From an uncultured Bdellovibrio sp. (lineage in GTDB: Bacteria > Bdellovibrionota > Bdellovibrionia > Bdellovibrionales > Bdellovibrionaceae): a stretch of DNA of 22,259 nucleotides. Shown piece by piece: positions 8,345 through 16,580 of the stretch. How positions within the stretch are numbered: the first letter of the stretch is position 1; every line of letters begins with the position of its first letter. Location of the stretch: the NCBI GenBank assembly GCA_963932905.1, contig CAWVRN010000044.1, positions 1 to 22,259 of the forward strand, written 5' to 3'. The position numbers and the translations under genes are program-made. Below the pieces are notes generated by a model that ran no database searches, was not told the DNA's origin, and saw only the letters and a program-made list of their open reading frames with translations.

Positions 8345-10570
8345 TTAAATAAACAAAATGCGAATATATTTAAGACCGCTAAATGCACTTTCGATGTTGG
8401 CCTTTGTCTGATTTGACCAACCTGTTGAAGATATACAAACAAAATGACCTACATTAAAGTCGCGGCAAAACTTTACGTATCTTGCAAGTTGAGGATTCTT
8501 AAGGGTTCCGTTCGTCTTACATTCGGCGACCAATAGCTTACCGTCAAAATTTCCTATAATATCAATTTCTTGTACTGCGTTTTGATTTTCATTGCATATC
8601 TCTACTTCGCATTCAAACTCAAAATAATTTTTAGAAGTATCCTTAATTTTTTTTGCGCCATATAGAACGAGATCGCTATTTGATTCTTGCAACCCATAGA
8701 CTAAAGGATTCTGATCATAGAGAAATCTTGGATCAATGTCGCCCGAGGATAAAATATTGCGGGTATGCATATTAGAACATCGATTGCATTTAAACTTACG
8801 ACTTACACTCCCTTCAGAATAAAAATCCACCCATCCGCAGGTCTGACAAATCAGTTTTTCTCCACGAATTAACACCTCACGCTCAATCCACTGATTCAAC
8901 AAATCAATAGTTACCGAAGAAAGGGGCACTCCAAAGGCTTCCGCAATAGGCATGCTAAATAGGAATCGATTTTTAATCACAATTCCAGCATGAAGAGCAA
9001 GCCCTAGGCTTGTTTTATTTTTGGCTTTCGATCCATTTCTAAATACTTCAAAGACATTGCATGAATCTGAGTTGTAATATTCTTCGTAAAACAGATCGAC
9101 ACTTCCGGACCAAAGATTCAACACAGCATCTATATTCATAGAACCTATTGATTTTCTCGGTGAAAGATTCTTCTTTGAAAGTATCTCTTTCAAATCTTGA
9201 AAGAATTTATTTTTAACCAGGCGGGGACCATGGAGGGCCGACTCAATTTGTTGCCCAGCTCTAGATAGATGCATAATAGGATTAAATGAAACGCCTCCGG
9301 TATACGACCTTCTTGCATCATCATCTAAAGCTATTCTCTCGTTTGGCCATCGAATAGGCACCGAATCTATCATATTATGTCCGAGAAACTTATAAGCTGA
9401 AGTATGCAAATCTATCTGAAACTTCGCTTTACTCGTTTCCAATTTAAAGCCCTTTGGTGAAAGCAAGGGGGCCTTTTGAATCGACGATGTCCCCTTAAAC
9501 AACATTGCAATTTCCGAGAAATTATTCGGTTCTCCCCACTCTAACCAGTTTTTGACAATAGAATTAAAATCAACATCAAAAGAATATCGAGGTCTCATAA
9601 AAGACGAACCAGAAATCTTCGATTCTGTTCTACTAATCGAATCCGAAACAAACTTATTCAAATCAGCTTCACTGAGAGACGCTGAAGTAAAAACACATCC
9701 TTTTTCTCGATCCTGATCCGTAACCATTCGATACAATAGAAAGTCAAATTCACTAGGAATACTCTCTTGTTTTGGTATCAACAATGATGTCGGAATCCAG
9801 CGAACTGAAAAATAGAAATTCTGAAGAGTCTGAAATAAGCACCAATCTTCAATTTTATCTCCCACAATAACGATATAGGGAATTAAATAAGGAATAACTG
9901 GGCCATTTACCCCCGCAGCACCAAGAAACCTGTTGGTCTCTTTCATCGGGCTACCATCAAAGTTATTTGGATATCTACAACTTGCGATATCTACGCAATT
10001 GTTTTCAATGTCCTGGATTGTAATGTTTAAATTGTTAAAATGAACCAAATTAGCATTTACACAAACGTCTTTTTGATATTTCCCACTCCTTCCAAAATGG
10101 GAAAAAAACCACAAATCATGTACTATGCTTTCAGTCGGGCCATATTCGACCATCGTGGTCATTTGCAACTCACCTGAAAACAAGTCCTCGAAAGGCATCG
10201 TATAATGATGCCCTCGATGAACCATTTTCGGAATTTGAACAACTTCGGAATCAAATTGAAATATTTCGGCCCGAGTTAACAAGCTCTCGGATAAGAATTC
10301 CAAAAAGCTTTCGGAAAACGAAGCTGTTGAGACAATTCGATCAGGATCATACTTCTGTAACAATTTAATCCAAACTTGAATATCTGGATTGTTTTGCTCA
10401 TTCTCACCTATCGGCAGGAAAAAATAATTCGACCCACCCCATACTGTTGAAATCCAGGGCAAAACTTCGTCCATTATCCAAGATAGCGGAGATCTAATAT
10501 CTATGAGAAAAGCAATGCGCGTCGGTCTCAATGTTGCTGTAACGTCTACCGTTGTTATTTCGGTTTCCAT
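8345..10570 (-). CDS. Large hypothetical protein with C-terminal Zn-ribbon and PD-(D/E)XK nuclease-like domain
   Basis: CQTC (8837-8848) and CNRC (8777-8788), followed by EVEI...QEIDIIGNFDGKLLVAECK (D...ExK motif). The likely start is ATG 10570 (METEITT) with AGGA upstream; the ORF track starts at 10624. Confidence 0.75.
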   Translation of the reverse strand: METEITTVDVTATLRPTRIAFLIDIRSPLSWIMDEVLPWISTVWGGSNYFFLPIGENEQNNPDIQVWIKLLQKYDPDRIVSTASFSESFLEFLSESLLTRAEIFQFDSEVVQIPKMVHRGHHYTMPFEDLFSGELQMTTMVEYGPTESIVHDLWFFSHFGRSGKYQKDVCVNANLVHFNNLNITIQDIENNCVDIASCRYPNNFDGSPMKETNRFLGAAGVNGPVIPYLIPYIVIVGDKIEDWCLFQTLQNFYFSVRWIPTSLLIPKQESIPSEFDFLLYRMVTDQDREKGCVFTSASLSEADLNKFVSDSISRTESKISGSSFMRPRYSFDVDFNSIVKNWLEWGEPNNFSEIAMLFKGTSSIQKAPLLSPKGFKLETSKAKFQIDLHTSAYKFLGHNMIDSVPIRWPNERIALDDDARRSYTGGVSFNPIMHLSRAGQQIESALHGPRLVKNKFFQDLKEILSKKNLSPRKSIGSMNIDAVLNLWSGSVDLFYEEYYNSDSCNVFEVFRNGSKAKNKTSLGLALHAGIVIKNRFLFSMPIAEAFGVPLSSVTIDLLNQWIEREVLIRGEKLICQTCGWVDFYSEGSVSRKFKCNRCSNMHTRNILSSGDIDPRFLYDQNPLVYGLQESNSDLVLYGAKKIKDTSKNYFEFECEVEICNENQNAVQEIDIIGNFDGKLLVAECKTNGTLKNPQLARYVKFCRDFNVGHFVCISSTGWSNQTKANIESAFSGLKYIRILFI

Positions 10571-10649
10571 AATGAAATTCCTAAAAATTTTTCCTAAACG
10601 ACGTAAAAGGACCCATTCACGCAAGACAAAAAATAAGGGGTACCTTTCA

Positions 10650-11180
10650 CTAAATCATTTTAAATACTTTATTTTCAAGATTCGCTCGAAGCAAATAAAA
10701 AGAGAGTGAAATAACAAGTAATGCCGCATTTATAGGATTTAAAAGTGCCAACCCTGTCTCTGAAATCGCATATCCCAAATACATTGGGTGCTTAATGTGG
10801 CGATAGATTCCACTGCTTACTAGGCCACGATTGGCTGGTGATATTCCAATGGAGACTCCAAGTTCAATTGTCGCGAAGACCACTATTAAAAAGCCAGATA
10901 TAGCTAAGAGGTCCGAAACAAGTAGTAACGATTTGGTATCGACAGCAGGTCCCAAATAGAGAAGTGGCATCGCCGAAGATACATAGGCCAGAACACTCGG
11001 AATCAAACCACCTTCTGATCGGCTAGGTTTCCTTTTTAAAAAAAAGTACCCCGCTGCAAAATCCCGCAAAACCAACAGTAAAAAAAACATAAGCTGAGTC
11101 TGGTGCCAGCGATAAAGTGCTATCACACCAAACCCGATCATCATTGCCGAGCCTAAATATTTTCCATAGTCTTTATTCAA
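10650..11180 (-). CDS. Isoprenylcysteine carboxylmethyltransferase (ICMT/PEMT) family membrane methyltransferase
   Basis: Multiple TM helices and the motif LVSSGIYRHIKHPMYLG...RANLE. The likely start is TTG 11180, just after the upstream peptide stop; the ORF track starts at 11210. Confidence 0.85.
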   Translation of the reverse strand: MNKDYGKYLGSAMMIGFGVIALYRWHQTQLMFFLLLVLRDFAAGYFFLKRKPSRSEGGLIPSVLAYVSSAMPLLYLGPAVDTKSLLLVSDLLAISGFLIVVFATIELGVSIGISPANRGLVSSGIYRHIKHPMYLGYAISETGLALLNPINAALLVISLSFYLLRANLENKVFKMI

Positions 11181-11181
11181 A

Positions 11182-11340
11182 CTAAATCCCAGGTTCCCCG
11201 CAGACAACAATTGGCCTCACTTTGGATTTTTCAATGTCGCTTATATAGTCATTTCCGGCATCTGCCTGATAAGACTTCATAGATTGAAATCCTGCCACGA
11301 GAGCAAGTATAACGGCCAACACCTGTATCATTTTTTTCAT
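11182..11340 (-). CDS. Small secreted peptide, 52 aa (not in the ORF track)
   Basis: MKKMIQVLAVILALVAGFQSMKSYQADAGNDYISDIEKSKVRPIVVCGEPGI*. The ATG overlaps the hydrolase stop (ATGA), a GGGGAG RBS lies upstream, and the ORF fills the gap between two operon genes. It has basic n-region, hydrophobic h-region and an A-D-A cleavage-like motif. Confidence 0.75.
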   Translation of the reverse strand: MKKMIQVLAVILALVAGFQSMKSYQADAGNDYISDIEKSKVRPIVVCGEPGI

Positions 11341-12125
11341 TTCTCCCCCTTATGATATAAAAATTCTGTTTCTATTAAATTTGAAACCTTATCGGGCTGG
11401 TCCATAGTTACGAAGTGACTCGCATTTTCAACTTCGAAAAATTCAAATCCGCCTGCTAAAGAGTCATTTTTTAAAATATCTACGTCCAAAAGTTTATCGG
11501 CGCTTCCAGCAATGAAGATCTTTTTCTGTTCAATTGTCCGAAGAACATCCAACAAGTCTTCTTTTCCTAAAACATCTGCTCGGTTATCCAAGAAATATTT
11601 TGCAGACACCCTGTCATTTATCAGAGCATCTTTGCCTTTTGGTGTTAAAAAATACATATCGCCATACTCCGAAACCCAATTAGCAAAAGACGAATCGTCT
11701 CGCATTTCGGTCCATTTTAATTCTGCGTCACTTAAAGCGGGTGACATGTTTTTCAAATAATTATCATTTGCAGATGAAAGCGCTGCTTTCGAAAATGGAG
11801 TCGAAATACAAACAAGTCCTGAAACTACGTCACGAACAAGTAATTCTGCGGCGACAAAGCCTCCGAACGAATGGCCTAACGCATATTTCAAACCGGATTC
11901 ACTTTTTACAACCTTTTCCAACGCTGTTGTGATTTCGGTGAACGTTTTTTTTCCTGTATAACTGGAATCATTCGTCCCCTGGATATCTACATAAATAAGT
12001 TCAAAACTCCGTTTGAGCACATCAAGGCCTCGCAAAGTAAGCGAACTTAACCCAGGTCCACCAGGAATTATGAAAAGTTTCGGTCCATTGGGTGAGACAG
12101 ACGGAACATAGGTTAATTTAATCAT
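11337..12125 (-). CDS. Alpha/beta fold hydrolase, proline iminopeptidase (S33)-like
   Basis: IIPGGPG oxyanion motif, GHSFGG nucleophile elbow, Asp in GSADKL and His in NASHF. No signal peptide. Confidence 0.9.
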   Translation of the reverse strand: MIKLTYVPSVSPNGPKLFIIPGGPGLSSLTLRGLDVLKRSFELIYVDIQGTNDSSYTGKKTFTEITTALEKVVKSESGLKYALGHSFGGFVAAELLVRDVVSGLVCISTPFSKAALSSANDNYLKNMSPALSDAELKWTEMRDDSSFANWVSEYGDMYFLTPKGKDALINDRVSAKYFLDNRADVLGKEDLLDVLRTIEQKKIFIAGSADKLLDVDILKNDSLAGGFEFFEVENASHFVTMDQPDKVSNLIETEFLYHKGEK

Positions 12126-12163
12126 ATGAGTGCCTCAAATTTTTCTTTAAAAGCTTGTGCGCT

Positions 12164-13489
12164 TTATGTTTTGTTAAGATTAAAATCCTTCAACCAACGA
12201 TAAAGAGTGGCTTCGCTAATTCCCAGACTTACAGCAGATTTTCTTTTATTGCCGTTAAATTCATTCAACGTTTTGATTAACTCTTCTTTACGGGCATTAG
12301 TTTCTACAACAGCAACCCTAGTAAGGTTTGTTTCGCTCGGAGATTGGCCATAGCCGATGGCCTCAGCTACGACTCCACTATCTATAGTAGTTTTGGAAGA
12401 CAGGACTATGATTCTTTCAATAACGTTTCTTAACTCTCTGATATTTCCTGGCCAACGATACTTCAGCAACTCTAACTCTCCATCTTGAGTTAAGTGAAAC
12501 CTATCCCCATTTCGAGATAGTTCGTCAATAAACAGATTTGCATAAAAAATGATATCCTCGGGACGCTCTCTTAAAGACGGTAACTTCAAAACGAATGTAT
12601 TAAGCCTTTGAAGAAGATCGAGTCTAAATGTACCGTCCGCGACAAGTTTGTTTAGGTCCCTATGGGTAGCAGCGATGAAGCGTACATTTATTTTCTTGGT
12701 TTTATTTGAGCCCAGAGGTTGAACTTCCTTTTCTTGAATTACACGTAAGAGTTTAGATTGAACAGACGAAGAGCATTCTCCAATTTCATCAAGGAAGAAA
12801 AGGCCATTATGTGCCGTTTCAATCAGACCTGTCTTATTTGCAATGGCTCCAGTAAAAGCACCACGTTCATGGCCAAACAAAATGCTCTCAGCCATTTCTT
12901 TCGGTATGCAACCCATATTGGTACTCACCGCTTTTAATTTAAGATTATGCGCTATATGTTGAGCTAAAAATTCTTTCCCAGTTCCAGTTTCACCCAAAAT
13001 TAAAATTGGAGACTCAGAATTACTTCTAAGAATAGTATTTACCTGACGAAGAACGTTTTTTACCGACTCGGATTGAGTAAGATATTTAGTTTGAGCTTCC
13101 GCCTTGGTGGCAATCCGCAACTGAGTTGCATTCTTAAGAGAACTTAATAGAAATCCAAAGTAGTCGATATCTTTAACGATGAATTGAAAATGTTTTCTTC
13201 TGGTTGCCTCAACAATCCGCCGTGTACTTGTATCACCGCTGAGCACTATCAGGAAAGTTCCCGCAGATTGCTTGTTCATAAAATCCAAAAGATGAATTCC
13301 ATCGAATTCTTGACCGTCAAAATTTAAATCAATGATAGCCGCATCAAAGTCGGTTTCTAAAACAATTCTTTTTGCTTTTTCTACGGTATTTGCAGTAACG
13401 ACCTCGAAACTTGAACGGAGGCTTAGATTAAGAGTCTGTAAAATATCAGAATCATCATCACAGATAAGTATTTTTGGCTTTATGTTCAT
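12164..13489 (-). CDS. sigma54-dependent NtrC/Fis-family response regulator
   Basis: Receiver domain (ICDDD, IIDL), Walker A GETGTGKE, GAFTGA loop, FLDEIGE, WPGNIREL and a C-terminal Fis HTH (LGISEATLYR). Confidence 0.97.
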   Translation of the reverse strand: MNIKPKILICDDDSDILQTLNLSLRSSFEVVTANTVEKAKRIVLETDFDAAIIDLNFDGQEFDGIHLLDFMNKQSAGTFLIVLSGDTSTRRIVEATRRKHFQFIVKDIDYFGFLLSSLKNATQLRIATKAEAQTKYLTQSESVKNVLRQVNTILRSNSESPILILGETGTGKEFLAQHIAHNLKLKAVSTNMGCIPKEMAESILFGHERGAFTGAIANKTGLIETAHNGLFFLDEIGECSSSVQSKLLRVIQEKEVQPLGSNKTKKINVRFIAATHRDLNKLVADGTFRLDLLQRLNTFVLKLPSLRERPEDIIFYANLFIDELSRNGDRFHLTQDGELELLKYRWPGNIRELRNVIERIIVLSSKTTIDSGVVAEAIGYGQSPSETNLTRVAVVETNARKEELIKTLNEFNGNKRKSAVSLGISEATLYRWLKDFNLNKT

Positions 13490-14847
13490 ATAATCCCCAA
13501 ACGAATCTCAAAGCTAGAGCCTCCGAGATCACTTCTTTTATATATCAATTTTCCACCGTGAGAATGAACAATGTGATTCGTCGACGAGAGACCAAATGCC
13601 TGTCGATTTGCTTTCCCCGATTGACCTCGCCCCTGAAAATAAAGTGGAACCTTGCTTTCATCCATGCCGATTCCGTCGTCGCAGATACGAATGATAGCAT
13701 GGTTACTATTTTTAACTACTGAAACACGAACTTGGCTTTTCGCCGCTTCAAGGCCATTTTCTAGCAGGTTTACTAACGCCCGTTTTAAAAGTACGGGATC
13801 ATGAGGAACACCAAAATATTCAGATTCAAAATCAGCATAAATAGTTTTTTTATTTTCAAGGGTTTGTGCCTGATAAATTCCATCTTGGATACAATTGATA
13901 ATGTTCAATTCCCTTAGAGCAATTGGTTCATCTTCTAAATTTTTCTTTGCGGCGGTAACTTGGCTCAAAATCTGGTCAGCCAGTCTAGAGATACTATCGG
14001 CAGCCTCAATCTTTGTTTCCAAGTCTTGAGATTCATCATTCGCAAGACTGCTCATTTGCCTCAACGCCGAAACTGGATTATGAAGATCATGAATAAGTCT
14101 TTTGTAAGCATCCGTAGAAAGTTTTTTTGCTTTAGATTCAGCAATTTGGTCCTTTGCATTCTCCAGCGCCGTTTTTGTCATGCGTACGGTATTTCTTATT
14201 TCTTCAAGCTCCCGTATTTGGATAGGTGCCGATTCGCCAATATTTTCAGCCAACATTCCTTTAATCTCGGCGTGAAGTTGATCGATCGGACGCAACGCTT
14301 TCTTTATGGCTTTTCTCATTTGATGGGCCGACAACAGCGAAACTAAAACACAAAGAAAAAATATGCCACTGAAAATCCCTAGGGTGCTCGCGATAATTGG
14401 CTTCAAGGGAGAAATTATATAAATTGTAGCATCTAAAGGAGCTTGGCCCGGTCGTTTAATTTCACTTGAAGTGATAATTTCACTACGGCCAATATCCTTA
14501 TTCCACAATTTCAGTATAGAATCTGGTTTGATAAATGGACGATCAAGTTCCTCAAGACTTCGACTTGAGGCAAATACGTCACCGCCTTGGACAACTATTA
14601 GGTCTGATCGAATTGCCTCAGAAGTCGACTGCAGAACTCGCAAAAGTTCGGGGCGATCTGAAGACTCAATCAACGTTGCAAGATAAGGAGACAGAGACTC
14701 CGCCGTCTTAACGTTTGTCTCAAATTTTGATTCAAGAGAGTTTGCCGCAATCAAACATGATACAGAAACAGCACTAACTAGTGATATCGTCCATCGATAC
14801 AGACTAAGTGAACTATTGACGTGCTTAAAGAAAGTAACTCTTTTCAT
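13486..14847 (-). CDS. Membrane sensor histidine kinase
   Basis: Two TM helices flank a periplasmic domain. H-box LIHDLHNP, N-box NLLENG, G1 DDGIG and an atypical G2 (QAFGLS). Start ATG 14847 overlaps the SBP stop (TAATG), and the stop overlaps the regulator start (ATGA). Confidence 0.95.
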   Translation of the reverse strand: MKRVTFFKHVNSSLSLYRWTISLVSAVSVSCLIAANSLESKFETNVKTAESLSPYLATLIESSDRPELLRVLQSTSEAIRSDLIVVQGGDVFASSRSLEELDRPFIKPDSILKLWNKDIGRSEIITSSEIKRPGQAPLDATIYIISPLKPIIASTLGIFSGIFFLCVLVSLLSAHQMRKAIKKALRPIDQLHAEIKGMLAENIGESAPIQIRELEEIRNTVRMTKTALENAKDQIAESKAKKLSTDAYKRLIHDLHNPVSALRQMSSLANDESQDLETKIEAADSISRLADQILSQVTAAKKNLEDEPIALRELNIINCIQDGIYQAQTLENKKTIYADFESEYFGVPHDPVLLKRALVNLLENGLEAAKSQVRVSVVKNSNHAIIRICDDGIGMDESKVPLYFQGRGQSGKANRQAFGLSSTNHIVHSHGGKLIYKRSDLGGSSFEIRLGII

Positions 14848-16340
14848 TACTCCGCCACTTTTTCCGGCAAGCAATTTGTCGAAAGACTTACATTAGTATA
14901 ATCAATATAAACATCTGATAGAATATTCGGTCTAAAATTTTGAACACAGTTTGAAATCCAATAATTTGCTCTAGGGTGGAAAAGATTTACCGTAACGGAG
15001 GATTTCTCTGTCAATTTCAAGGCCTCAAAATAGTAAGTTTCCCGTATTTTTCTATCTTGCGTAGCCCGTGACTTTTTCAAAATCTCGTCTAGCTTGGCGT
15101 TCTTTAGTCCACTAAAGTTATCTAGGTTATCCGATTCAAAATTTTTCAATAGGAAATCCGCGTCGGGGTAGTCCATGTTCATCGCTACTAAAAATGCTTG
15201 ATGAGACTTTTTAGCATACCCGTCCATCAAGCTATTCCAAGCCATCAACTCCACTTCAACACTCCAACCCCTATTAGACATTTCTTTTTCAACCAACACT
15301 TTCATATCTTTGGCCCTAGCTAACTCGGCAGGAATAGCGATTGTAATCTTTTTTCGTATAGGGCGAGCCCATTTAACATTCAAATCTATTTTTACTTGGG
15401 AGCCGGAAAGCCCATTGGGAACATAGCCATTGGCTTTTACAGAATCGGGATAAAACGATTGACGGAATGTCTCGACTGGAAAACTGACTTTGAAAAGTTG
15501 CCTTGTATTTAGATTATCGAATGGTGGTTTTAGCGTATTCATTCCTATAATCCAAGTTGAAGCTACCGGACTAGATACCTTTTGACCCATGCGAAATATT
15601 GGATCATTTTCAGTCAATGGCCAACTTGAGAGGTCATGAATGTTTCCAGACTTAGCTAGTTCTAGAGCGACGTCTTGAGTTGTTTCTTTTAAAATTAAGC
15701 GATCAATTTTTGGTTTACCCGCATGAAACTTGGAAAATGCCTCCAAAGACATTTCTTTTTTCGATTGATTGATGCCTATAAATTTGAATGGACCTGACCC
15801 TATCGGACTATGAAAAAAATTAGGATCGAGTACTTTTGATCTCGGAAGAACCTTTGCTGTCGCACCCGCCAGAACCGATAGAAACGGCGGAAATGGGTAC
15901 AGCAATTCAATCTCTAAATTTTTATCATCAATGGCCCGAATCTCTTTTATCGAGTCATAAAACTTGCGAACCTTGCTTTCTGGCAACAATGCCCTCTTCA
16001 ATGAAAACTCGACGTCGGCAGCAGTAATGGCATCACCTGAATGAAAAAATATATTTGTCTTAAGCTGGAATCTAAGGGTACGGCCGTCTTTACTCGTAGA
16101 CCAGGTATCAGCTAAAGCACCTTCAATTTTAAGGGTAGGAGAGAATTTCAATAGTCCATCATAAATTAGATTAGCAACCGTCAGTGAGGCTGTGTCGTTC
16201 ATTTTTATTGGATCGAGTGAAAGTGGAAAAGAATAGATCCCTTTGAAATAGGTTTTAGACGAATCTTGAGCATAGGCTGAGGCTTGCACTAAAAAACCAA
16301 TTGAGAAAAATATTAAAAACAGCCATTTTCCAAGAAACAT
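14847..16340 (-). CDS. Family 5 (OppA/DppA-like) periplasmic solute-binding protein, with no adjacent permease or ATPase
   Basis: Signal peptide ending AYA. Motifs SLDP, IYDGLLK...GALA..W..S.DG, FHSGDAITAADVEFS and PIGSGPFK. Confidence 0.93.
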   Translation of the reverse strand: MFLGKWLFLIFFSIGFLVQASAYAQDSSKTYFKGIYSFPLSLDPIKMNDTASLTVANLIYDGLLKFSPTLKIEGALADTWSTSKDGRTLRFQLKTNIFFHSGDAITAADVEFSLKRALLPESKVRKFYDSIKEIRAIDDKNLEIELLYPFPPFLSVLAGATAKVLPRSKVLDPNFFHSPIGSGPFKFIGINQSKKEMSLEAFSKFHAGKPKIDRLILKETTQDVALELAKSGNIHDLSSWPLTENDPIFRMGQKVSSPVASTWIIGMNTLKPPFDNLNTRQLFKVSFPVETFRQSFYPDSVKANGYVPNGLSGSQVKIDLNVKWARPIRKKITIAIPAELARAKDMKVLVEKEMSNRGWSVEVELMAWNSLMDGYAKKSHQAFLVAMNMDYPDADFLLKNFESDNLDNFSGLKNAKLDEILKKSRATQDRKIRETYYFEALKLTEKSSVTVNLFHPRANYWISNCVQNFRPNILSDVYIDYTNVSLSTNCLPEKVAE

Positions 16341-16379
16341 TTTAACCCCTTATTGGAAGATCAAGTTATTCCTCCCAAT

Positions 16380-16395
16380 TGCGGATATTGTGCCA
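16380..16395 (-). promoter_or_regulatory. sigma54 (-24/-12) promoter of the SBP-HK-RR operon
   Basis: Minus strand TGGCACAATATCCGCA has a consensus TGGCAC -24 element and exact GG-N10-GC spacing, 40 nt upstream of the SBP ATG. Confidence 0.7.
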
Positions 16396-16551
16396 AAGCA
16401 ACCCACCTTAAATAAGCTGTTGCTAACTAAATAATCAAGCAATGCACAATTCTAAACCGTTCCAGTGGCTTAAACGATTTTAATTGATTTACAAAAACAA
16501 CCGGCATGAATGAATTACATACTTCTCAGAGCCAGAATGGCTCCTTATCCG

Positions 16552-16580
16552 TGAGAGAGTCTCTCAAAAATGAGAGACTC
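16552..16580. repeat. Perfect inverted repeat, candidate upstream activator site
   Basis: GAGTCTCTCA-AAAA-TGAGAGACTC (16557-16580) overlaps a second palindrome TGAGAGA-G-TCTCTCA (16552-16566). It lies ~160-185 bp upstream of the sigma54 promoter. Confidence 0.65.

Follow-up and report, generated by a model that had tools for sequence, protein, structure and literature searches.

The six co-oriented genes spanning positions 16340 to 10650 on the minus strand of the DNA analysed here (the window, which is an entire contig of 22,259 nt, C44, from a genome of 4.55 Mb and 98.6% completeness) very probably form a mobile, autoregulated cassette. In this cassette a solute-binding protein (SBP), a sensor kinase and a sigma-54 enhancer-binding regulator travel with three obligatory companions, namely an alpha/beta hydrolase, a small secreted protein and an integral-membrane methyltransferase of the ICMT family. 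An earlier note made from this DNA (the original prediction) had read the same genes as an agr-like quorum-sensing operon; our analysis upholds the conserved unit, the autoregulation and the peptide-type SBP of that reading, but not its maturation scheme, and the tail of the small protein does not diversify. The features of the cassette, with genes taken from the list of open reading frames (ORFs) and lengths given in amino acids (aa), are as follows.

14847..16340, minus strand: family-5 SBP, 497 aa (Pfam PF00496)
13486..14847, minus strand: sensor histidine kinase, 453 aa (HATPase_c)
12164..13489, minus strand: response regulator and sigma-54 enhancer-binding protein, 441 aa (PF00072, PF00158, PF02954)
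11337..12125, minus strand: alpha/beta hydrolase, 262 aa (Pfam Abhydrolase_6)
11182..11340, minus strand: small secreted ORF, 52 aa (Sec signal peptide; C-terminal CGEPGI)
10650..11180, minus strand: integral-membrane methyltransferase of the ICMT/PEMT family, 176 aa from TTG 11180 (PF04191, PF04140)
16380..16395, minus strand: sigma-54 (-24/-12) promoter, from sequence and conservation
16536..16580, minus strand: palindrome and adjoining block, left border of the cassette, from the inverted-repeat listing and conservation

The six genes are tightly coupled, and their five junctions, as read from the sequence, are exactly those that had been claimed. The start codon of the kinase gene overlaps the stop codon of the SBP gene (TAATG in GAGTAATGAAA), ATGA overlaps join the kinase to the regulator gene (TATATGAAC) and the hydrolase gene to the small ORF (AAATGAAA), a gap of 38 nt separates the regulator from the hydrolase gene, and one nucleotide lies between the small ORF and the ICMT-like gene (TAG-T-TTG), the start of which is TTG 11180, with an alternative TTG at 11210. 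The ICMT-like start codon likewise abuts or overlaps the stop codon of the small ORF in all five loci in which this junction was read. Internal sigma-70 promoters are not enriched within the cassette (8 versus 14.9 expected from shuffles), nor are terminators enriched over shuffles (6 versus 5.3).

Synteny in genomes and metagenomes bears out the claim that the cluster is a conserved, self-contained unit of six genes. Among the genomes of 60 relatives, close homologues of the SBP (46-70% identity; at least 44% for the cassette type) were found in four, G004 (twice), G040, G046 and G048, each from a different family of the order, and every one of these homologues is adjoined by the same five genes in identical order; six further matching genomes contain ordinary SBPs only, with 25-28% identity. 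A scan of species-representative genomes with an alignment of the ICMT-like protein, in which gene content was assigned by tblastn, yielded 18 loci, nearly all of them in Bdellovibrionota (Bdellovibrio bacteriovorus strain Bd5, Bdellovibrionaceae, Bacteriovoracaceae and metagenome-assembled genomes of Oligoflexia), with two short contigs binned as Chlamydiae and Saccharibacteria. The complete order of six genes is present in 10 of these 18 loci, and five others end at contig borders and are consistent over their extent. Partial cassettes also occur: on the chromosome of strain Bd5 (L026) the SBP gene is missing and the kinase is reduced to its last 59 residues, with the regulator, hydrolase, small protein and ICMT genes intact, L024 is reduced to part of the small ORF and the ICMT gene, and L037 consists of a solo, frame-broken ICMT gene without hydrolase or small ORF upstream. 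The ICMT-like genes of L037 and L058 each match in two pieces a few bases apart, which suggests a frame break or a sequencing error. In metagenome contigs the scan found 21 loci, one of which (L039) is the window itself; six of the 20 non-self loci hold all six genes, in one there is no DNA upstream, and the remaining ones, although short or truncated, agree with this order. An all-versus-all comparison of the ORFs of the loci detected no additional gene common to more than five of them, and a protein search of a plasmid collection with the ICMT-like enzyme returned only six distant matches (28-50% identity), none in a comparable context.

For the comparison of upstream regions we distinguished a clade A of 11 aligned loci, which includes the window and in which the SBPs are 68-72% identical to that of the window, from a clade B with SBPs about 45% identical to it. 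Of the six genes, the ICMT-like one is the best conserved in clade B (55-63% identity), with kinase and hydrolase at 29-34%. Pieces of the cassette, with a likeness of 88-100% and a depth of 2-13, are also present in contigs of three RNA-seq metatranscriptome libraries from one study (X3-X5) and, in the same range of likeness and depth, in a library of uncertain kind (X1). These contigs reveal neither strand nor transcript ends and may stem from DNA carry-over, so that they are not counted as evidence of transcription.

Both upstream elements of the original prediction, a -24/-12 promoter and a perfect palindrome, were found in the sequence 5' of the operon. The predicted promoter, TGGCACaatatCCGCA (TGGCAC-N5-CCGCA), shows the canonical GG-N10-GC spacing; it lies about 40 nt 5' of the start codon of the SBP gene, and the palindrome centre is about 175 nt further upstream of it. 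The palindrome, GAGTCTCTCA-tttt-TGAGAGACTC, has two arms of 10 nt each (16557-16566 and 16571-16580), which are 100% complementary and separated by a 4-nt spacer. It is the sole perfect inverted repeat with arms of at least 10 nt among the 13 listed for the window, its exact sequence occurs once in the 4.55-Mb genome, and a conserved block, TCTCTCACGGAT..GGAGCC, adjoins it. Throughout clade A the palindrome block, an ATGTAA block and the element TTTGGCACAA-N5-(C/A)GCAAT are invariant or nearly so, and a GG-N10-GC element stands at the same position in all 11 aligned upstream regions. Clade B keeps a -24/-12 element as judged by eye (TGGCACaccatTTGCG, TGGCCCgatatTTGCC; weaker in L056) and has other types of palindrome at the palindrome site (TAGTAGCGCTACTA and GTAGCA..TGCTAC). 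Since related cassettes have conserved both promoter and palindrome in this position, the presence of the two elements in the window is more than chance. The palindrome also marks the left edge of the unit, because the DNA further left is unrelated in every locus. Contigs of relatives from the RNA libraries match the window over 16536-16580 only.

Sigma-54 promoters require an enhancer-binding protein, and sigma-54 itself is encoded in the genome (rpoN, C2:328170). The palindrome region is probably the upstream activating sequence, that is, the binding site of the sigma-54 activator encoded by the cassette. Because the cassette moves as a unit with exactly one enhancer-binding protein, and because the type of palindrome switches with the clade of the regulator, activation of the operon by its own regulator is a well supported prediction, and the positive feedback that had been proposed is supported by the conserved sigma-54 promoter and the palindrome upstream of it. 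A second target of the regulator was considered at C12:8704, where a look-alike palindrome (CTCTCActggTGAGAG) lies about 100 nt 5' of TGGCACaagaTTGCT; it was rejected as a probable chance occurrence, with a -24/-12 spacing one base short. This look-alike site (approximately 8700-9130 of that contig) precedes an ORF of 84 aa with a zinc ribbon.

The surroundings of the cassette differ from locus to locus and are rich in genes of mobile DNA. A resolvase gene is located directly 3' of the ICMT gene in four loci (L020, L026, L027 and L029), and the partial cassette of strain Bd5 (L026) is flanked by a large serine recombinase in addition to its resolvase. Neighbours in the various loci further include an IS91-type transposase, a large serine recombinase, a LinB-like nucleotidyltransferase, TraC/VirB4, BrxA/BrxB and a MerA-like reductase. 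Since nothing else around the cassette is conserved and its neighbours are resolvases, insertion sequences, conjugation genes, BREX genes and MerA-like genes, the cassette is, to judge from these comparisons of sequence, a self-contained and horizontally mobile unit of Bdellovibrionota. In the second cassette of G004 (L016/L023, contig C41), which was counted among the 10 complete six-gene loci, the hydrolase gene is interrupted by about 2.9 kb of inserted DNA with an IS21-type istA (rve, Mu-transposase C) and istB, and a MerA-like reductase together with small ORFs resembling MerP/MerT lies directly upstream of this cassette.

The first three products of the operon are most simply described as a three-component sensor. 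The SBP matches SBP_bac_5 (PF00496) with 171.8 bits against a cut-off of 32.4, carries a Sec signal peptide (..ASAYA/Q) and finds DppA, HbpA, AgaA and OppA among the profiles of PDB entries with values of 1e-24 to 1e-41 (about 1e-36 to 1e-41 for DppA, HbpA and AgaA). All of the NCBIfam equivalogs concerned (DppA, OppA, NikA, GsiB and SapA) score far under their cut-offs, the best being 95.3 bits against 600 (Opp5A_nikA). Arg355 of DppA binds the carboxylate of the dipeptide; in the cassette SBPs this position is an invariant Leu (L340 in the window) in both the MAFFT and the hhalign alignment, with an invariant Arg two residues further on, so that the protein is apparently not a dipeptide binder of the DppA type. 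Asp408 of DppA, which according to a passage of PMC3295651 contacts the charged (amino) terminus of the ligand, has its equivalent in D390 of the window, and this residue is invariant in 11 of 11 cassette SBPs in the same alignments. Taken together, these positions suggest that the ligand carries a free amino group and, in the simplest case, is a peptide other than a dipeptide of the DppA type. Pfam scans of the larger ORFs of the window revealed no ABC transporter genes (permease or ATPase), and none were seen among the conserved flanks of related loci. The assignment of the SBP to a peptide-binding type therefore agrees with its DppA/OppA-like sequence, its lack of a transporter partner and the retained amino-terminus clamp, and we propose that this orphan SBP serves as a co-sensor of the kinase. 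In the kinase, two transmembrane segments (20-38 and 148-177) flank a periplasmic domain of about 110 aa, and an H-box (HDLHNP) and a HATPase_c domain are present. The regulator combines Response_reg, Sigma54_activat (PF00158, 181.8 bits) and HTH_8 (Fis-type) domains and contains the GAFTGA motif (..ERGAFTGA..); its score with the LuxO model (220 bits) is well under the cut-off of 800.

The absence of the small ORF from homologous clusters had been set beforehand as a refutation of the original prediction, and the opposite was found: 17 of the 18 loci from genomes contain the ORF, as do 19 of the 20 non-self loci from metagenomes; the two misses are the locus without upstream DNA and the broken solo ICMT gene. 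In the window it encodes 52 aa and starts with a Sec signal peptide (..MKSYQA/D). Complete homologues in the genome and metagenome loci have 116-124 aa, and among these loci the 52-aa form is confined to the window and its own metagenome copy. Here the signal peptide is followed by about 20 residues and then by CGEPGI, which corresponds to an in-frame loss of approximately 66 core codons. Hence the "52-aa secreted peptide" of the original prediction is indeed a secreted product, but its size is that of an atypical deletion form of a helical secreted protein of about 118 aa. The short form is not an assembly artefact, as a sequence with two different residues (P0054) heads a cluster of five member sequences, and it is covered by ungapped contigs in runs X1 and X3. 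The loss of the core means either that the tail is what matters or that this copy is decaying.

The extreme C-terminus is PGI in all 37 sequences derived from the loci, as EPGI in 30 and as GPGI (after Asp or Cys) in 7. Among 18 remote representatives that were fetched (88-124 aa, with middles that can barely be aligned), the ending is PG[IV] in 15 and PT[IV] in two, and the last one seems to be truncated. The features kept across the family are the signal peptide, one short motif within a helix (..LRYIQAIGAE..L..) and the P-G-[IV] terminus. A Cys before the tail is found in a minority only (CGEPGI in 1 of 37, GCGPGI in 2 of 37, and one or two residues further upstream in a few more), and there is no conserved His/Cys/Met pattern of a metal-binding kind. 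The family is tiny, with 29 clusters at 90% identity; at 50% identity, a set of 1.84 billion proteins contains 35 of its representatives. It has no Pfam match and no name in the sources consulted. AlphaFold2 models the protein as helical, ending in a disordered tail (pLDDT 75). Foldseek against the PDB gave no match at E<=0.001, with Spy only at rank 41 (probability 0.02), a VIA wide search returned generic helical hairpins (best Z 6.6), and the best hit in the ESM Atlas (feature score 0.75) belongs to an unnamed cluster. Fused or longer forms did not score among 522 candidates, which is weak evidence. CzcI was tried as a relative of the small protein and rejected (hhalign probability 0.3%).

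The two enzymes could be assigned to broad families. The hydrolase matches Abhydrolase_6 (39.6 bits), whereas the S33 model Hydrolase_4 (PF12146, 19.2 bits against a cut-off of 27) and TIGR01250 (22.8 against 167.65) remain under their cut-offs. A GGPG oxyanion motif (G22-G25) and the triad Ser86/Asp210/His237 are invariant. The best matches to profiles of PDB entries include a proline iminopeptidase, tricorn factor F1 (7e-9), as well as the methylesterase PME-1 (3e-7), and in Foldseek searches with a confident AlphaFold2 model (pLDDT 91) F1, esterases and BioH came out equally close. The "S33-like" label thus appears fair in respect of the triad, the GGPG motif and the place of F1 among the top matches, but it does not hold at the level of families, where the models stay under their cut-offs and esterases and BioH score alike. 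The methyltransferase was correctly placed in the ICMT family, as it passes the Pfam cut-offs for PF04191 (PEMT, 31.5 against 25) and PF04140 (ICMT, 29.3 against 24) and keeps the cofactor-binding motif: its profile aligns GIY..I.HPMY..R..E to the cofactor-binding region of Ma-ICMT 4a2n, residues 112-171, with an E-value of 1.2e-4. Its score with NCBIfam NF040696 is 24 against a cut-off of 160. To our knowledge, no substrate of a bacterial ICMT-family enzyme has been described, nor a settled role for CzcN. There is no prenyltransferase among the six genes or the conserved flanks, and since in addition the Cys of the tail is not conserved, a CaaX-like prenylated substrate for the ICMT-like enzyme was ruled out.

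In the window, the cassette looks as if it sits in a genomic island. One of its flanks holds a tRNA-Arg gene accompanied by a fragment of a resolvase and by a PARP-like ORF, and the opposite flank contains an SRAP ORF and an ORF for an RHS fragment. The corresponding features are listed below; the match of the 945-aa ORF to the catalytic domain of PARP is weak (24 bits, under the cut-off).

2434-2509: tRNA-Arg(CCT)
2989-3318: resolvase fragment, 109 aa
3671-6508: PARP-like ORF, 945 aa
17641-18624: SRAP ORF
18537-19892: RHS-repeat fragment

A further minus-strand ORF of 759 aa (8345-10624) begins approximately 25-80 nt after the ICMT stop codon, and no terminator-like site was seen in between, so that it may be co-transcribed with the cassette in the window. 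It has no Pfam or NCBIfam match and, according to the comparison of ORFs across loci, lies outside the conserved cassette. Two ORFs at the left end of the contig (106-747 and 984-1787) carry N-terminal prepilin-type methylation motifs and are type IV pilin-like.

As to the function of the cassette, our tentative preference is that the small secreted protein is a self-made cue or modulator which acts via its tail on the SBP or the kinase, because such a cue would explain at once the invariant tail, the peptide-type clamp and the obligatory co-occurrence of the genes. The SBP/kinase pair would then read a peptide-like cue, and the invariant tail of the small protein (an acidic residue followed by Pro-Gly-Ile/Val-COOH) would supply this cue or modulate its sensing. 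Two versions are conceivable. Proteolysis in the periplasm might free the tail as a short, Phr-like peptide, which would leak out and act between cells, or else the intact small protein might remain in the periplasm as a cell-autonomous feedback partner, and a tail that does not diversify is compatible with such a conserved internal partner. The ICMT-like enzyme and the hydrolase would constitute a pair for methylation and ester hydrolysis at the cytoplasmic face of the membrane, with either the C-terminal carboxylate of the precursor, prior to export, or a membrane lipid as the target; this is the weakest step of the scheme.

Several observations weigh against a self-made cue. Since its core is conserved and confidently helical in most lineages, the small protein is more than a disposable pro-region, and the deletion form of the window could simply reflect decay. 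The tail remains PGI throughout the 37 sequences even though the SBPs diverge to about 44-45% identity, unlike known peptide pheromone systems, and co-diversification of signal and receptor is accordingly missing, with no pherotype-like pattern across the SBPs. The matches of the hydrolase to PME-1 and proline iminopeptidase amount to generic similarity among alpha/beta hydrolases. With the topology of ICMT as a guide, the catalytic loop of the ICMT-like enzyme is predicted by the positive-inside rule to be cytoplasmic, and the hydrolase has no signal peptide, so that neither active site has obvious access to the exported small protein; as the enzymes face the cytoplasm, any modification by them would require action before export, and only under this restriction does their proposed role in processing and modifying the precursor fit. 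The cassette furthermore encodes neither an exporter nor a protease. Finally, its carriage as a passenger of transposons and conjugative elements beside MerA-like, nucleotidyltransferase and BREX genes is the usual setting of modules that respond to external stress.

This setting leads to the explanation that competes most directly with a self-made cue, an inducible response or resistance module similar to AioXSR, which we regard as possible if somewhat doubtful. Compared with the original prediction, carriage on mobile elements and the AioXSR precedent give it equal standing. The SBP would sense an exogenous peptide-like or other ligand, such as a peptide antibiotic, a peptide from the prey or its wall, or a metal complex, the operon would be turned on through the kinase and the sigma-54 activator, and the hydrolase, the helical periplasmic protein and the methyltransferase would be the output, serving envelope remodelling and protection or detoxification, with the small protein as an effector or chaperone. 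In favour of this explanation, the architecture matches the arsenite sensor AioX-AioS-AioR of arsenic islands as described in parts of PMC7533571, and the cassette is likewise a cargo of mobile elements, in the window on an island after tRNA-Arg. Moreover, the ICMT-family protein CzcN is, according to sections of PMC7563307 and PMC10127602, an output under two-component control of an acquired metal-resistance determinant. CzcN and the cassette enzyme share the catalytic core (hhalign probability 73%, E 3e-5), and the cytoplasmic site of hydrolase and methyltransferase would suit an output role. Nickel and glutathione binders are among the best NCBIfam matches of the SBP, and SapA-type binders of antimicrobial peptides are among its matches to PDB profiles; however, the SBP scores far under the cut-off of every named equivalog. 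Nor does the cassette contain an efflux pump or a transporter, and the small protein lacks a conserved metal-binding pattern and is unrelated to CzcI (0.3%). A response module would also leave without explanation why the small protein retains its invariant features, i.e. the signal peptide, one helix motif and PG[IV], and why a form consisting of signal peptide plus tail has been kept in one lineage.

A self-made cue could in a special case amount to strict quorum sensing of the agr or Phr kind, in which a matured peptide accumulates outside and the SBP and kinase measure the density of cells or elements. The evidence for a self-made cue applies equally here. In Rap-Phr systems a precursor is secreted, its few C-terminal residues are the active part, and an OppA-type protein reads them, with cassettes frequent on mobile elements; this precedent, together with the presumed ability of a pentapeptide to pass porins, speaks for such signalling. 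Yet we consider it unlikely, given that the tail is invariant without co-diversification of signal and receptor, the precursor is normally a folded protein with about 93 residues in its mature form, the enzymes proposed to mature it lie across the membrane from it, and no route of secretion across the outer membrane is encoded. In addition, ICMT chemistry of the type of the yeast a-factor is inapplicable in the absence of a prenyltransferase and of a conserved Cys. More elaborate still, and decidedly improbable in our judgement, is a C-terminally methyl-esterified peptide pheromone on mobile elements of a diderm predator. The ICMT-like enzyme would then esterify the Ile/Val carboxylate at the inner membrane face before Sec export, the hydrolase would be the opposing methylesterase, and proteolysis in the periplasm would free x-E/G-P-G-I-OMe, to be read by the DppA-like SBP with its clamp and with Leu at the carboxylate-binding position; autoinduction through sigma-54 would report the local density of the element or of its hosts. 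At the far end of the range we place a small-molecule methyl-ester signal or lipid modification, for which the hydrolase would free a fatty or isoprenoid acid, the methyltransferase would esterify it, the small protein would carry it and the sensor would respond. Pairs of a carboxyl methyltransferase and an alpha/beta-hydrolase esterase do recur, as in BioC/BioH and in Ralstonia, where a 3-OH-fatty-acid methyl ester serves as a signal and has its own esterase. This alternative is also favoured by the slightly higher score of the model PEMT, which stands for a phospholipid methyltransferase, over the ICMT model (31.5 versus 29.3 bits) and by the esterases, lipases and BioH among the structural neighbours of the hydrolase. 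The amino-terminus clamp of the SBP, however, points to an amine or peptide ligand, nothing about the small protein, which is without a fold match, suggests a lipid carrier, and its invariant tail would go unexplained, so that this alternative seems highly improbable.

The front half of the cassette is a sensor of a known kind. It shares with AioX-AioS-AioR, and more loosely with LuxP-LuxQ and LuxO, the combination of a periplasmic SBP without transporter, a kinase and a regulator of the sigma-54 family, and according to passages of PMC7533571 the AioXSR system, too, acts on an RpoN-dependent promoter and is found on islands spread by horizontal transfer. The SBP of the cassette, however, belongs to the peptide/nickel family 5, while AioX is of a phosphonate-type family. 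In contrast to the Aio and Lux systems, moreover, the sensor genes share an operon with the outputs behind the regulated promoter, and these outputs have no Aio or Lux counterpart.

For the remaining genes the likenesses are more scattered. As in Rap-Phr with OppA, agr and comQXPA, there is a Sec-dependent precursor with a conserved extreme C-terminus, a likely reader of the OppA/DppA family, mobility and autoinduction. Unlike in Rap-Phr, the SBP would signal through a kinase and not import the peptide, and the cassette differs from all three systems in its folded precursor (about 93 mature residues), its non-diversifying tail, its diderm host and the lack of an AgrB-, ComQ- or Rap-like gene. 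The CzcN/NccN proteins of Cupriavidus likewise are ICMT-family membrane proteins with an unknown substrate that are under two-component control on acquired DNA, according to the sections concerned of PMC7563307 and PMC10127602. The identity of the cassette enzyme to CzcN is 32% over 87 columns, though, the neighbouring CzcI is unrelated to the PG[IV] family, and an efflux pump is absent from the cassette.

Small helical periplasmic proteins in the regulon of a kinase are also known from ZraP and CpxP, with ZraR being a sigma-54 activator. The likeness to ZraP-ZraS-ZraR and CpxP-CpxA-CpxR lies in a small helical periplasmic protein that possibly modulates its kinase, and models of ZraR and ZraS match the window proteins under cut-off. 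Similarity of sequence or fold between the small protein and ZraP, CpxP or Spy was, by contrast, not found in the Pfam, Foldseek and VIA searches, and the C-terminal PG[IV] is absent from those families. Methylation and demethylation of a C-terminal carboxylate is carried out in eukaryotes by LCMT-1 and PME-1 on PP2A and by ICMT with a prenylcysteine methylesterase. These pairs resemble the cassette in the combination of a methyltransferase with an alpha/beta hydrolase and a protein with an invariant tail, and the PME-1 profile is matched at 3e-7; yet the similarity to PME-1 consists of general motifs, the candidate substrate of the cassette is exported, and a prenylation signal is missing.

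In the open-access literature we found no description of the cassette, of the PG[IV] family or of an ICMT link in Bdellovibrio. If the tail is the ligand, the cassette would represent a rare case of peptide self-signalling in a diderm bacterium and would offer the first candidate substrate for bacterial ICMT-family enzymes; if an external compound is sensed, it would be a new mobile and inducible response module of predatory bacteria. Under either reading, a cassette of about 6 kb with one promoter is small enough for reconstitution in a laboratory host with sigma-54. In summary, new with respect to the known systems are the combination of genes, their portability and the family of small proteins: from the SBP-dependent two-component sensors described so far the cassette differs as a portable, self-activating unit that joins a sensor of the peptide class to a secreted protein with a constant PG[IV] end and to an ICMT-family enzyme.

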